DNA from: Thermotogota bacterium
GTDB lineage: Bacteria; Thermotogota; Thermotogae; UBA12178
Direction: 5' to 3'
NCBI GenBank assembly: GCA_021161835.1
Contig: JAGGZV010000066.1
Span: 12,108 to 76,107, forward strand
Length of the DNA stretch: 64,000 bases
Positions 26,369-32,067 of this stretch are shown one piece after another (position 1 is the stretch's first letter; each line of letters opens with the position of its first letter). Both the position numbers and the translations under genes were made by a program. The notes under the pieces are model-generated. The model made no database searches. It was not told the origin of the DNA and worked only from the letters and a program-made list of their open reading frames with translations.

Positions 26369-27709
26369 ATGCTCAAATTGAATGTGAAACCCGCTCTCCT
26401 ATTGCTGGAAGACTCAAAAATCTCTGCTGTTAAGGGCGAACTCAAAAAGTGTATTAAAAAGTTTCATGGTTCGCCACCCGGTTTCGTGCGAATACTCTAC
26501 GACGATCGTGTGGTGCGGGAAATTGAGGAATACTCGGAAAAGCTGAAAAAATATGAAAACTTCGTTGTTGTTGGAATAGGTGGTTCTGCGCTCGGTAATC
26601 AAGCCCTGCAGAATGCTTTGCGACCCATGGATTGGAATTTTCTTACGTCTAAGGATAGAGAGGGGTACTGCAGGGTTTTTGTAATTGACAACGTGGACCC
26701 CGATCTGGTACGTACCACCCTGAAAATGGTCGAACCCGAGAAAACGATTTTCAATATAATATCAAAATCCGGTGGTACGGCAGAGGCACTTGCCAATTAT
26801 TTGATAGTACGTGGTGTTCTGGAAGATGCGGGTCTGGATCCCAGGGATCACCTTGTTTTCACCACCGATCCCAAAAAGGGATTTCTCAGGGAACTGGCCA
26901 ATCGGGAGGGAATAGATGCTTTCGAGATACCACCCGATGTCGGGGGTAGATTCAGCGTATTGACCAGCGTGGGGCTTCTTTCAGCGAAAGCCGCGGGTAT
27001 AGACATAAGGGCATTGCTGGAAGGAGCCAGAAGTATGGTGGATAATTCGAAATTGGAGGAAGTAAATGAAAATCTCCCCGCCTTGTTGGCGCTGGTACAT
27101 TATTTGCACCTCGAGCAGGGCCGCAATATAGCCGTGATGATGGCTTATTCCAATAGATTGCTTACTCTGGTTGATTGGTTCAGGCAGCTGTGGGCAGAAA
27201 GTTTGGGAAAGAGGAAGGATGGACAGTGTGGGGTTGGGCAGACTCCTGTTAAAGCTCTGGGCAGTGTTGACCAGCATTCACAGTTGCAACTGTACAACGA
27301 TGGGCCGGATGATAAGATCATAACTATGCTCAGGATCAGGGAGTTTCATGATGATGTAGAGATTCCTTTGATACATGATGATGAAAGCGTACGGTATCTG
27401 GGTGGCAAGAAGCTTTCCGGGTTGTTGAACACGGAATTCGTGGGTACCGCTCTTTCGCTGGTGGAGAGCAATAGACCGGTGGTAATTCTGGACTTTGAGA
27501 AACTCGACGAGGAGCATGTAGGGCGGTTTTTCCTGTTGTACGAGATAGCAACGGTGTTCATGGGTGAACTGCTGGGTGTCAATCCCTTCGATCAACCCGG
27601 TGTCGAAAGAAGTAAAGTAATAACGAAAGCTCTGATGGGTATGAAAGGTCTTGAGAAGGAAAAGGCTAAAATACTGGCGCGTTTAAAAGAGCTGGAAATG
27701 GAGGCGTGA
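26369..27709 (+). CDS. pgi: Glucose-6-phosphate isomerase (short bacterial/Thermotoga type)
   Basis: It has the SIS-type VVVGIGGSALGN, plus ISKSGGTAE, GGRFSVLTSVGLL, DQHSQLQLYNDGP and NPFDQPGVE. Confidence 0.88.
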   Translation: MLKLNVKPALLLLEDSKISAVKGELKKCIKKFHGSPPGFVRILYDDRVVREIEEYSEKLKKYENFVVVGIGGSALGNQALQNALRPMDWNFLTSKDREGYCRVFVIDNVDPDLVRTTLKMVEPEKTIFNIISKSGGTAEALANYLIVRGVLEDAGLDPRDHLVFTTDPKKGFLRELANREGIDAFEIPPDVGGRFSVLTSVGLLSAKAAGIDIRALLEGARSMVDNSKLEEVNENLPALLALVHYLHLEQGRNIAVMMAYSNRLLTLVDWFRQLWAESLGKRKDGQCGVGQTPVKALGSVDQHSQLQLYNDGPDDKIITMLRIREFHDDVEIPLIHDDESVRYLGGKKLSGLLNTEFVGTALSLVESNRPVVILDFEKLDEEHVGRFFLLYEIATVFMGELLGVNPFDQPGVERSKVITKALMGMKGLEKEKAKILARLKELEMEA

Positions 27710-27966
27710 ACTCCATGGATCCTTACGTAGCGTGGCTGCTGGATGGGGTGGAAACGAATGGTGTATACCTTGTGGAAGAGGACCTCCCAACTTACATAAT
27801 CGTTACTCGGCGAGACGAAGTGATCGTGTCCAGAATGAAGATCAGCGATCCTCCTGTGATTTCCGATGTCAACGTGGTGGTTTTAACACCTGATGAATGG
27901 GAAAATCTGGAGACGTTGAATCCCGGGTTGAAGAAATTGCTTGAAATTTCGCGAAGAGTGATATGA
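27706..27966 (+). CDS. Hypothetical 86-aa protein, translationally coupled to pgi and coaE
   Basis: It has GTGA overlap with the pgi stop and ATGA overlap with the coaE start. I recognise no motif. Confidence 0.4.
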   Translation: MNSMDPYVAWLLDGVETNGVYLVEEDLPTYIIVTRRDEVIVSRMKISDPPVISDVNVVVLTPDEWENLETLNPGLKKLLEISRRVI

Positions 27967-29887: not shown

Positions 29888-29944
29888 AAGCCCTGCATCC
29901 TCAAAAAATCACGCAATATTAAGGATGCAGGGCTTTTATCTTTT
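29888..29944 (+). terminator. Hairpin terminator after the solute-binding protein gene
   Basis: A 14-bp perfect stem AAGCCCTGCATCCT / AGGATGCAGGGCTT spans 29888-29901 and 29922-29935. The 20-nt loop is unusually large, and TTATCTTTT follows. Confidence 0.55.
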
Positions 29945-30044
29945 ATATATGACGATTGTTTTGCACTATTGTGTATATAGTCGCACTTAGAGTTTTTCGC
30001 ACTATAACCGCAACAGACCCGTAATTTTTTTAATACTTATCAAG

Positions 30045-30050
30045 TATAAT
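30045..30050 (+). promoter_or_regulatory. Consensus -10 hexamer TATAAT upstream of the Cys-rich protein gene
   Basis: TATAAT at 30045-30050 lies 36 nt before ATG 30086 and is preceded by an A/T-rich tract. No good -35 is present. Confidence 0.3.
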
Positions 30051-30085
30051 CATTTAAAAATCCTATGTTCAAGGAGGGATATGGT

Positions 30086-30484
30086 ATGTTTAGAAGATTT
30101 TTAACAGTAGTGTTGTGTTTGGTCGTGATTTCTTCCATGGTTTCCGCTTTCACGGTTGCTTCCTTTATGGTGAACCTGAGTGAACCAGGAGATGCACTGA
30201 CATTTGGTAAAACGCCACCACGTCTTTTGAGGGAATGTGATGAATCCCTGACTGAACCGATCACCAGGTGTGTATGTGTCAAGAAAGAATGTAAAGGTGG
30301 TTACATGGATTATGTATGTCTCGATATTTGTAAACTGGGGTGTGAAATTGCCAAAAAGAAATATGGTAGTGTAGCGTATTGGGTATGCGTAGCAGGTTGT
30401 TATGCAGGCTGCTGGGTTCCGAAAAGGTGTACGTGCGTCGATTATGATTGTGTGACAATTTATCCGTGTAATTGGGGAAATTGA
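30086..30484 (+). CDS. Exported cysteine-rich protein (132 aa, 14 Cys in the last ~75 aa), family not recognised
   Basis: ATG 30086 lies 7 nt after AAGGAGGG. The signal-like N-terminus is MFRRFLTVVLCLVVISSMVSA. The C-terminal part contains YVCLDICKLGC and WVCVAGCYAGC, a duplicated VC-x3-C-x3-C motif. Confidence 0.6.
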   Translation: MFRRFLTVVLCLVVISSMVSAFTVASFMVNLSEPGDALTFGKTPPRLLRECDESLTEPITRCVCVKKECKGGYMDYVCLDICKLGCEIAKKKYGSVAYWVCVAGCYAGCWVPKRCTCVDYDCVTIYPCNWGN

Positions 30485-30549
30485 ATAATAATGAAATAAA
30501 TAATGCTAAAAACATATATTTCAATGACAAAACGGAGAGGGGGGTAAAC

Positions 30550-31491
30550 ATGAAGAAATTGCTTTTATTCACCATATTGGTAATTTCAATAATCTGTATT
30601 GCGGAAAATATGACCTTTATAGTTGGGAAGGACGAGGGAAGCATTGAGAGTATACAGGAGGCCATAGATCGTGCGAGCGATGGTGACACGATATACATAA
30701 AACCAGGTGTTTACCAGGAAAATATAGTGATAAAAAACAAAGCGGTGAAGATAATAGGGGAATCTCCAGATGTAAGGCTAGAGGTAGAAGGGTCCGAAGC
30801 AAGTCCTGTTGTATACATAGAAGATTCGGAAATTGAGCTCGCCAATTTAACGATCTTTGCCTCAGGTACAATAGCGGTCATGGCGATGAATTCAACGGTT
30901 GTTTTCAGGGATATGAATCTAATTTTGGGAGATGCCGTAGGTGTTTTCTTAATAGCAACTGGTACCATAGCCACGGAAAACCAAAATGTGGCTTGTTTCA
31001 AGAATGTTAACATGACAGGAGTGAAAACAGAAAAAAGAGTTGGAGGAAGCCGACGGATTGAAGTTCACGATAATCGTGGAATAATCTCCTTGATGGATTA
31101 CCAGCTTTATGTTTTCAATTCTCGATTTTCCTATTTACAAGTGGGTATTACCACATCGAGCAGAAAAACTCTTATAAGTGATTCGGAATTTCTTTACGAT
31201 GTTAATGCCTTGGTGCTAGTATCTGGGAACAACCTTGTGTTATCCAACAAGTTTCATAAAGCAATTGAAAGAGCTATTGTGTTGATGGGAAATTGCAGGG
31301 TAGAGTTAACCAACAATTCGTTTGCGGACAATACGGTGGATCTTTTCCTTTTAAACGAATCGTGTGATTGTTGTCCTTCTGCTAAGAAATTCACCGGGAG
31401 TATTGAGGGAAAGTTTAACATTTTCAAGCACACATTCATCGTTCAGCCAGAAGATACTGTTTTGCCTTCTCACTTCATACGTGGTGAGTAA
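30550..31491 (+). CDS. Exported right-handed parallel beta-helix repeat protein (pectin-lyase fold / NosD-like)
   Basis: ATG 30550 follows GGAGAGGGGGG. The N-terminal hydrophobic segment is KKLLLFTILVISIICIA. Next comes SIQEAIDRASDGDTIYIKPGVYQENIVI, typical of beta-helix proteins, then repetitive short beta-turn units. A C-terminal CDCC cluster is present. Confidence 0.65.
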   Translation: MKKLLLFTILVISIICIAENMTFIVGKDEGSIESIQEAIDRASDGDTIYIKPGVYQENIVIKNKAVKIIGESPDVRLEVEGSEASPVVYIEDSEIELANLTIFASGTIAVMAMNSTVVFRDMNLILGDAVGVFLIATGTIATENQNVACFKNVNMTGVKTEKRVGGSRRIEVHDNRGIISLMDYQLYVFNSRFSYLQVGITTSSRKTLISDSEFLYDVNALVLVSGNNLVLSNKFHKAIERAIVLMGNCRVELTNNSFADNTVDLFLLNESCDCCPSAKKFTGSIEGKFNIFKHTFIVQPEDTVLPSHFIRGE

Positions 31492-31644: not shown

Positions 31645-32067
31645 GTGAAAAAGTGGTGTTTAGTGAGTATATTGGTGCTTTCACTGGTAGTGTTACCTGG
31701 TGGTGCTGCTAAGTACAAAACGTTGGCAGATATCCTTCAGGAGGCTTTAAATGTTGTAACAGAAATAACTCCTGTGGAAGCTGCTGCAAAAGTAGGGGAA
31801 AAAGATGTTGTGTTTTTAGATGTGAGGGAACCTACCGAAATAGAGAATGGCAGGATACCCGGTGCAGTGGTGTTGCCGCGAGGATTACTTGAGTTTAAGA
31901 TCGAAAAAATGTATCCCGATAGGGATGCGCAGTTGTTTGTGGTCTATTGCAAAGCAGGTGGTAGAGGCTTACTTGCAACTAAAACACTCATTGAAATGGG
32001 ATACAAAGCTGTAAACATAAAAGGTGGTATAACAGCGTGGAAAAAGGAAGGTTTACCTCTCGAATAA
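31645..32067 (+). CDS. Exported single-domain rhodanese (sulfurtransferase)
   Basis: GTG 31645 follows AGAGGGTGA. The signal-like N-terminus is KKWCLVSILVLSLVVLPGGAA. It has FLDVREPTEIENGRIPGA and the active-site loop YCKAGGRG. Confidence 0.85.
   Translation: MKKWCLVSILVLSLVVLPGGAAKYKTLADILQEALNVVTEITPVEAAAKVGEKDVVFLDVREPTEIENGRIPGAVVLPRGLLEFKIEKMYPDRDAQLFVVYCKAGGRGLLATKTLIEMGYKAVNIKGGITAWKKEGLPLE

Follow-up and report, generated by a model that had tools for sequence, protein, structure and literature searches.

The gene at positions 30086-30484 of a 64,000-nucleotide stretch of DNA from a Thermotogota metagenome-assembled genome (MAG; GCA_021161835.1, contig JAGGZV010000066.1, positions 12,108 to 76,107; the whole stretch is termed here the window) encodes a small exported protein whose C-terminal domain is packed with cysteines (Cys). 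This domain belongs to a family that, together with its predicted fold and the two-gene module in which it is encoded, is undescribed in the libraries and literature that we searched; as a kind, disulfide-braced helical-hairpin mini-proteins are already known. Almost everywhere in the family the Cys-rich gene is followed by a gene for a right-handed parallel beta-helix protein (the pair is termed here the cassette), and we tentatively put forward a model, which we regard as possible, in which the Cys-rich product is a disulfide-locked, dedicated binding partner of the beta-helix protein.

A genuine gene for an exported, cysteine-rich protein

The open reading frame (ORF) at 30086-30484 (Table 1) is a genuine gene, as evidenced by its ribosome-binding site (RBS), homologues in 17 protein clusters, constraint on the encoded domain and the transcription of orthologues in Kosmotoga olearia. 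When the window was compared with three strain-level variants, the proportion of nonsynonymous differences (pN) amounted to 0.005-0.010 in the Cys domain and to 0.066-0.075 in the part encoding the signal and linker (0.005 for the domain and 0.066 for the linker against variant L001), and the upstream intergenic spacer diverges from the strain variants by a few percent, as judged by eye in the alignment and not counted. Transcription, the sole experimental item, comes only from the relative K. olearia, where RNA-seq averages of Kole_0781 were 102, 352, 283 and 145 reads per kilobase per million mapped reads (RPKM) at 30, 40, 65 and 77 °C, similar to those of dnaA (PMC5674127 Table S4).

The product contains 15 Cys, one of which (C11) lies in the signal peptide, with the remaining 14 at residues 51, 62, 64, 69, 78, 82, 86, 101, 105, 109, 115, 117, 122 and 128; the 14 Cys of the original prediction, which had been made from the sequence of this region alone, thus apply to the part after the signal peptide and fall one short for the whole protein. 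Fourteen Cys in 82 residues represent a Cys content of 17%, compared to 0.93% in the window ORFs of at least 200 residues, and the second-richest stretch of that length among all window ORFs, spurious ones included, has 7. This density is far beyond chance. The motifs quoted earlier (VCLDICKLGC at residues 77-86, VCVAGCYAGC at 100-109, RCVCV, RCTCV and YPCNWGN) are exact, and the description of the product as exported and very Cys-rich is borne out by its signal peptide and the 14 Cys at residues 51-128. Two lengths needed revision: the Cys-free linker, given as about 35 residues, measures 29 (residues 22-50), and the Cys-bearing C-terminal part, given as about 75, measures 78.

All homologues possess an N-terminal signal peptide, which in a set of longer family members carries a lipobox (L-[SA]-G-C). 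In the window protein the hydrophobic run reaches approximately residue 29, and AlphaFold2 (AF2) models a single helix over residues 2-27, such that the segment may alternatively act as an uncleaved signal anchor. Export through the twin-arginine translocation (Tat) pathway was rejected, as the RR of MFRRF is RK in the strain variants and is missing in other clades.

An undescribed domain family in Thermotogota and sediment metagenomes

Searches with the window protein returned zero matches in Pfam, NCBIfam and PADLOC at E<=1 and zero in PHROGs at E<=0.1, in agreement with the original prediction, which could place it in no known family, and eight further family members had no meaningful Pfam match. 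A word-indexed search of 5.8 billion proteins recovered only near-identical relatives (a 93%-identical variant). Exhaustive comparison by phmmer with 1.84 billion cluster representatives (E<=0.001) yielded 17 proteins, each matching only residues ~45-132 and each representing a cluster defined at 50% identity. Scanning a genome collection with the single window protein gave no match, scanning it with a six-sequence alignment gave three Thermotogota loci, and a metagenome scan added eight further loci, all in clades already found. Homologues therefore exist, and the 17 clusters keep the Cys pattern, which forms part of the domain consensus R-E-C-D-E-S-x-T-E-P-x-T-x-C-x-C ... D-x-x-C-x3-C-x3-C ... 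C-x3-C-x3-C-W-V-P ... C ... E-C-x-T-I-Y-P-C-x-W. The outcomes that the original prediction had named as refuting it, a lack of homologues or homologues with unconserved Cys, thus did not occur.

Family members come in two lengths. The short forms (116-143 residues), consisting of a signal peptide, a variable linker and the Cys domain, are found in Thermotogota: in this MAG, in Thermosipho ferrireducens (two copies), in Thermosipho species, in Kosmotoga, in Mesotoga/Kosmotogaceae contigs and in Thermotogaceae MAGs. The cultivated K. olearia has two annotated members, Kole_0781 and Kole_1057. The long forms (~260 residues) derive from contigs of 58-63% GC in sediment metagenomes and consist of a lipobox, a disordered tether, a well-predicted domain of ~125 residues and the C-terminal Cys domain. 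In the long form P0012, the additional domain (residues 51-177; L008:10151-10531) is predicted at a predicted local distance difference test score (pLDDT) of 86-96 and comprises two helices, a six-stranded sheet and a helix; Pfam contains no match for it, and a Foldseek search of PDB with the long-form model returned nothing below E=0.08. It is a second unplaced domain and is not NosL-like. The earlier characterization of the host as an anaerobic thermophile suits the window, which comes from a Thermotogota MAG, and does not extend to the whole family, members of which also occur in Mesotoga-type (mesophilic) contigs.

In the literature that we searched, there was nothing relevant on a pair of a NosD-like and a Cys-rich protein, on Cys-rich exported proteins of Thermotogae or, in main texts, on the Kole locus tags. 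NosP and NosQ are unrelated.

One family member is annotated in a shortened form: in the second cassette of T. ferrireducens (CP071446, L003:10001-10360), the 83-residue P0015 stops where a TGA stands in frame instead of a conserved codon for Trp, which is TGG in the Thermosipho orthologue. Past this TGA, the same frame runs intact, with all Cys present, until it reaches a proper stop that precedes the partner gene by 13 nt. A recent nonsense mutation or an error of sequencing could account for the TGA, or it could be a site of read-through.

The predicted fold is built around a helical hairpin

With an alignment of 18 sequences, AF2 modelled residues 50-125 at a pLDDT of 90-98, with metal not required, as a strand (residues 59-70), two helices (76-93 and 95-108) and a second strand (114-127), as assigned by DSSP, and left residues 26-40 disordered. 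An independent model of P0012, built from long forms only, has the same topology. Foldseek searches with the window model found nothing below E=1 in PDB and nothing below E=0.38 in BFVD; the best local likeness, which is non-significant (E=8.7), was to the alpha-hairpinin VBP-8 (6O3Q), with a root-mean-square deviation of 1.9 A over 33 columns. In addition, the family profile aligns all six helix Cys with those of nigellin-1.1 (PDB 2NB2) at E=0.0014, a match that is marginal and Cys-driven.

The 6C alpha-hairpinin motif of plant peptides reads C-X3-C-X3-C-X4-20-C-X3-C-X3-C (PMC11591084). Residues 78-109 of the window protein meet this motif exactly, with 14 residues between C86 and C101, and it is kept family-wide with few exceptions. 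The two helices are presumably tied by a three-rung ladder of disulfides, 78-109, 82-105 and 86-101, the outer rung of which is backed by the joint loss of C78 and C109 in family member P0009. The original prediction had read this region as an internal duplication: the repeat of spacing (C-x3-C-x3-C, 14 residues, C-x3-C-x3-C) is real and family-wide, but the arms share almost nothing beyond their Cys, and a gene-internal duplication is therefore unproven. On the predicted fold, the two units are the antiparallel helices of a single hairpin.

AF2 predicts for the window protein the same helix-loop-helix that plant 6C alpha-hairpinins possess. Alpha-hairpinins are free plant peptides of ~35-40 residues (~30-45 as a defining range) that are released from vicilin-type or modular precursors and function in defence, whereas the window hairpin is the core of a bacterial domain of ~80 residues, to which are added a beta ribbon, 6-8 more Cys and the CDES-TEP and TIYPC motifs, which are absent from plants. 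The match being marginal and carried by Cys, convergence appears as likely as homology. Twin CX3C/CHCH proteins (small Tims, Cox17 type) resemble the window hairpin in having antiparallel helices tied by disulfides between CX3C motifs; unlike the window protein, they are eukaryotic, have two rungs, and reside in the mitochondrial intermembrane space where they are oxidised by Mia40. No sequence relation to them was detected in PDB searches.

Cysteines are gained and lost in pairs

The family core consists of 12 Cys (51, 62, 64, 78, 82, 86, 101, 105, 109, 117, 122 and 128), and changes to the set, like the loss in P0009, affect two positions at a time. C62 and C122 are jointly absent in all five sequences lacking either and are never lost singly; C69 and C115 are jointly present, in this clade only; and C89 and C97 were jointly gained in the Kosmotoga/Mesotoga clade. 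Moreover, both cross-strand pairs have the same sum (62+122 = 69+115 = 184), which places them in one antiparallel strand register. The count of mature Cys is even in 10 of the 16 members, a weak and mildly positive sign.

This gain and loss in pairs points to structural disulfides, although it is weaker as evidence against metal ligation, and most likely there are seven disulfides in the window protein and six in the family core. We infer that the Cys are oxidised in vivo. Given the pairwise gain and loss of Cys, a disulfide-knotted domain is the best-fitting of the three functional guesses in the original prediction; metal binding is a less probable alternative that we weigh below, and polysulfide chemistry or thiol modification is unsupported, as neither rhodanese nor radical-SAM genes are conserved neighbours. 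A pre-assembled Fe-S cofactor is incompatible with export by Sec.

The gene is paired with one for a beta-helix protein

The beta-helix gene at 30550-31491, an operon partner that is almost always present, escaped the original prediction. In 11 of the 12 clades for which there is downstream sequence, a beta-helix gene encoding a protein of 265-317 residues with a signal peptide lies on the same strand, 8-70 nt downstream of the Cys gene; other neighbours are not conserved across loci, including those in the window, namely the exported rhodanese, the convergent operon of a histidine kinase and a sigma-54 regulator, and housekeeping genes. Both K. olearia cassettes (Kole_0780/0781 and Kole_1056/1057) were predicted by Rockhopper to be bicistronic units, and the RPKM values of their genes run in parallel (PMC5674127). 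Across 11 cassettes, pairwise identities of the Cys domains correlate with those of the partners (r=0.80, Mantel p=0.0002), and each of the two cassettes of T. ferrireducens resembles cassettes from other genomes more than it does the second one in its own genome, indicating that the pair is inherited or transferred as a unit.

The window partner matches the Pfam families Beta_helix (8.2e-6), NosD (0.0037) and Pectinesterase (1.7e-4), as well as the NosD family TIGR04247 (1.2e-10), the last of these over the N-terminal cap only and with 40.6 bits against a 300-bit cut-off. Comparison of the partner profile with PDB sequences gave only weak matches to the N-terminal cap (PL6 alginate lyase 7DMK at 3.8e-7, and pectinesterases) and no NosD chain. 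Because the alignment of partners contains no invariant acidic, basic or His residue, we do not call the partner an enzyme; our impression is that it may be more of a scaffold.

A C-terminal C-x2-C(-P) with F-x-G-x-[IL]-x-G-x-x-N after it is present in most partners, and in the window corresponds to 31280-31400 (residues ~268-290; C-x-C-C-P ... F-x-G). The C-x2-C(-P) motif was seen in the partners at loci L003, L004, L011 and L014, and is missing in the partner of the P0003 clade; it may form a capping disulfide or a redox-active site.

A tentative model for the pair

In the model that we put forward, the Cys-rich gene would be the first of a two-gene operon, and its product would be exported by Sec and then either be released to the periplasm or toga space or remain held at the membrane via an uncleaved N-terminal helix. 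Behind a flexible tether of ~26 residues (22-47), a compact domain of ~80 residues would fold, in which the three-rung ladder cross-links the two-helix hairpin and a long two-stranded beta ribbon, carrying the 62-122 and the clade-specific 69-115 disulfides, clamps it; the remaining two bonds would form among C51, C64, C117 and C128. We infer that this hyper-stable module binds the co-transcribed and co-exported NosD-like beta-helix protein, for which it could serve as a subunit for docking or anchoring or, alternatively, as a tight regulator or inhibitor. Contact would probably be made via a conserved acidic and aromatic face (CDES-TEP, D75, W-V-P and T-I-Y-P-C-x-W) at the open end of the hairpin, where the conserved motifs lie, the hairpin loop being variable. 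The long forms, which are lipoproteins whose Cys domain sits distally on a tether, fit a docking module.

An analogous arrangement is known from plants, in which the pectin methylesterase inhibitor (PMEI), a small helical protein braced by disulfides, binds pectin methylesterase (PME), itself a right-handed beta-helix protein. PMEI differs from the window domain in being a bundle of four helices with two disulfides, and the window partner has weak N-terminal matches to pectinesterases without conserved catalytic residues.

Several observations weigh against a disulfide-locked binding partner. The partners show no conserved catalytic residues. The P0006 clade carries the Cys protein without a partner gene, which implies that the Cys domain can function, or at least persist, alone, and co-divergence can come from plain linkage. 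The number of mature Cys is odd in 6 of the 16 members, and the paired loss of Cys is also expected for shared metal ligands. Furthermore, a search of the window for thioredoxin-like CxxC motifs, taking up the earlier suggestion to look for thiol-disulfide oxidoreductases, found nothing credible and no thiol oxidase. Because Thermotogota are anaerobes and no thiol oxidase was found in the window, oxidation in vivo is not assured; such strict anaerobes are not known to have Dsb-type oxidases.

Alternative functions

We consider it unlikely that the protein is a thiolate metal carrier, in which Cys at helix-helix and strand-strand interfaces, remaining reduced because the periplasm is anoxic, would bind Cu(I) or Zn(II) in the manner of metallothioneins or Csp-type copper storage proteins and the metal would be exchanged with the NosD-like partner in a role resembling that of NosL. 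The cassette is like NosL-NosD, which acts in the maturation of nitrous-oxide reductase, in that the gene for a small exported protein or lipoprotein adjoins one for a periplasmic beta-helix protein of the NosD family: the partner falls within the NosD and Beta_helix Pfam families, and the long forms, as NosL, are lipoproteins with a lipobox encoded beside a NosD-family gene. The hosts are anaerobic, no Dsb-type oxidase is visible in the window, two long-form loci have a reducing-pathway Thioredoxin_3/DsbD_2 cluster 1.6-2 kb upstream, and the odd Cys counts would likewise be accommodated; Cys on i, i+4, i+8 helix faces are also present in Cu(I) storage bundles. However, there is no NosL likeness in sequence or fold, as the family members searched have no Pfam match to NosL (PF05573) and Foldseek searches of the models returned no NosL chain, and the gene order of NosL is unlike that of the cassette. 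The match of the partner to the NosD model is limited to the N-terminal cap, NosZ is in no gene list of the loci examined, and there is no consistent NosFY-type transporter, with ABC-2 transporter genes being nearby in only 2 of ~12 contexts. Neither His nor Met is conserved beside the Cys. The domain itself, which AF2 predicts with confidence in the absence of metal, is rich in aromatics and regular secondary structure: metallothioneins have few aromatics and Csp is a four-helix bundle, whereas the window fold combines a beta ribbon with a two-helix hairpin and has many Tyr and Trp. Paired Cys changes fit either reading, but the single register of the cross-strand pairs and the match to a solved three-disulfide hairpin favour disulfides.

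Less probable still is a secreted antimicrobial, protease inhibitor or cell-wall binder, possibly cleaved before R-E-C-D, for which the beta-helix protein would act as an accessory, immunity or targeting factor. The hairpin core has the motif of the plant 6C alpha-hairpinins, which are antimicrobial or trypsin-inhibiting (PMC11591084, PMC7191063). The rare and patchy spread of the family, its paralogous cassettes, a pseudogenised copy and flanking transposases are as found in accessory or conflict genes, and an ABC (ATP-binding cassette) exporter is encoded directly downstream in one clade. Against such a role, the domain is acidic, not cationic, around its most conserved motif, the lipid anchor of the long forms speaks against a diffusible toxin, PADLOC and PHROGs gave no match, and the nigellin match is the marginal one described above. 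Precursors of bacteriocins and of ribosomally synthesised and post-translationally modified peptides (RiPPs) have a dedicated leader and conserved genes for maturation, export and immunity, and the Cys family fails on these points: its members have Sec signal peptides or lipoboxes as leaders, their loci share no gene for a small membrane immunity protein, linkage to ABC genes is inconsistent, with the ABC exporter confined to one clade, and radical-SAM genes are not conserved. The precursor of the haloarchaeal bacteriocin halocin C8, in which a very stable, Cys-rich C-terminal segment of ~76 residues sits on a longer exported precursor, resembles the long forms, but its signal is of the Tat type, whereas those of the Cys family are Sec or lipoprotein signals, and no search produced a sequence match to it.

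It is very improbable that the product carries sulfur or polysulfide in concert with the exported rhodanese encoded at 31645-32067, or serves as a thiol-modification substrate of radical-SAM enzymes. The rhodanese gene begins 153 nt downstream of the cassette in the window and radical-SAM genes occur in some related loci, but the rhodanese is in no other family locus examined, the radical-SAM genes lie at varying distances and are missing from most loci, in K. olearia the predicted transcription unit comprises just the two cassette genes, and Sec export parts the protein from cytoplasmic maturases. The absence of a conserved linkage weakly refutes this role. Finally, the chance that the ORF is spurious, or that the real gene is the 139-residue ORF on the opposite strand (30279-30698, -), is negligible: although NCBI accessions run from the solute-binding protein through the beta-helix protein to the rhodanese without a gap and the minus-strand ORF is present, both are ruled out by the strong RBS, the 17 clusters with their conserved Cys pattern, the confident AF2 fold, purifying selection on the domain and the annotated, transcribed K. 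olearia orthologues.

Features of the cassette and neighbouring genes

Table 1. Positions in the window of the cassette genes, their expression signals and the elements of the Cys-rich protein.
Feature	Position	Strand	Details
Terminator-like hairpin	29890-29933	+	GCCCTGCATCC ... GGATGCAGGGC then TTTTATCTTTT; sequence reading
Putative -10 box of cassette promoter	30045-30050	+	Perfect TATAAT, 36 nt 5' of ATG; consensus match only
Shine-Dalgarno	30072-30077	+	AGGAGG, 8 nt 5' of ATG at 30086; sequence reading
Coding sequence of Cys-rich exported protein	30086-30484	+	132 aa + stop; ATG 30086, TGA 30482-30484
Sec-type signal peptide, residues 1-21	30086-30148	+	MFRRFLTVVLCLVVISSMVSA; possible cleavage VSA/F (slash marks the site); sequence reading
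Variable linker, predicted disordered, residues 22-47	30149-30226	+	pLDDT < 50 at 26-40; unalignable between clades
Conserved Cys-rich domain, residues 48-132	30227-30481	+	R-E-C-D-E-S-x-T-E-P ... D75 ... C-W-V-P ... T-I-Y-P-C-x-W
First long beta strand, residues 59-70	30260-30295	+	C62, C64, C69; DSSP on AF2 model
Helical hairpin, residues 76-109	30311-30412	+	C78-x3-C82-x3-C86 and C101-x3-C105-x3-C109; AF2
Second long beta strand, residues 114-127	30425-30466	+	C115, C117, C122; C128 directly after
Partner RBS	30534-30544	+	GGAGAGGGGGG; sequence reading; kept in L001 and L002
Partner gene	30550-31491	+	313-aa signal-peptide right-handed parallel beta-helix, NosD-like/pectin-lyase-like; starts 65 nt after Cys-rich gene

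The TATAAT is unchanged in the strain variants L001 and L002, and so is the terminator-like hairpin, which ends the upstream solute-binding-protein gene and parts it from the cassette; a simple hairpin scan overlooked this structure because its loop exceeds 8 nt. The stretch that separates the terminator from the -10 box contains three direct copies of T(T/C)GCACT(A/T), 16-20 nt apart (29960-30010), whose role as an operator is doubtful because they are partly mutated in L001 and L002. No -24/-12 element of the sigma-54 type was found 5' of the cassette, and control by sigma-54 via a nearby NtrC-type regulator was ruled out on this ground; the regulator is the last gene of a convergent housekeeping operon that also includes a histidine kinase.

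In the NCBI record of the MAG, the Cys-rich gene seems to be missing, as the accessions MCD6463318-20 allow only a single gene to lie between those for the solute-binding protein and the rhodanese. The NCBI version of the partner (J7L52_06475; 336 residues) implies a TTG start at 30481 that overlaps the stop of the Cys gene, whereas the ATG at 30550, with its strong RBS and the signal peptide that follows, looks like the real start. The rhodanese has a signal peptide when read from GTG 31645, which has a good RBS; in the NCBI version of 114 residues the signal peptide is dropped. Its position beside an exported Cys-rich protein is suggestive, although no other locus conserves this linkage. Elsewhere in the window, at 27706-27966, an 86-residue ORF with no Pfam match lies between the genes for glucose-6-phosphate isomerase and dephospho-CoA kinase, overlapping the pgi stop and abutting coaE.

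The surroundings of cassettes in other genomes are varied. In K. olearia (CP001634, L033:5961-16432), a gene for an rve-type transposase lies upstream of the Kole_0781/0780 cassette, and downstream there are a five-gene ABC/ABC-2 operon, two Peptidase_S41 genes that each follow an ORF of 54-57 residues, and a radical-SAM/SPASM gene; the set of Peptidase_S41, short ORF and radical-SAM/SPASM genes looks like a RiPP-type cluster. The second cassette, Kole_1057/1056, adjoins the transposase pseudogene Kole_1055. Two of the three long-form lineages (L008:6509-9668 and L031:3204-6351) encode, upstream of the cassette, an ArsP_1 permease, Thioredoxin_3, an unknown protein, DsbD_2 (CcdA-like) and, in L031 only, an ArsR-type regulator, which may together represent envelope thiol-redox machinery. 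A CMD/AhpD-like gene is immediately upstream of the cassette in L008-L010. In the P0003 clade (L005:2983-4943 and L006:1458-3418), the cassette is followed immediately by a 79-residue ORF and a 572-residue ABC exporter (ABC_membrane and ABC_tran), after which L006 has transposase fragments.

Implications

The domain constitutes an unnamed family of ~17 clusters with a confidently predicted fold that has no significant match in PDB or BFVD, and it places within a bacterial domain the six-Cys alpha-hairpinin motif, for which earlier descriptions had come from plants. For the MAG, it entails a correction of the annotation, in which the Cys-rich gene is seemingly absent and the start codon of the partner is probably mis-set. 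The two-gene linkage offers a point of entry to one subgroup among the many NosD-like beta-helix proteins that are still uncharacterised. A broader proposition, which we consider rather unlikely, is that the pair forms an undescribed two-component extracytoplasmic system of Thermotogota and a high-GC sediment lineage, with the new fold serving a non-catalytic NosD-like scaffold as its obligate subunit, chaperone or inhibitor; if this were true, the 6C alpha-hairpinin motif would no longer be plant-specific.

A Thermotogota protein with six or seven disulfides outside the cytoplasm would lead one to ask by what means anaerobes oxidise the proteins that they export, and if all seven form, strict anaerobes must have an unrecognised route to dense extracytoplasmic disulfide networks. 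The domain may also offer an extremely heat-stable mini-protein scaffold. Because K. olearia is cultivated and expresses both of its cassettes, these matters are directly testable in a living host of the family.

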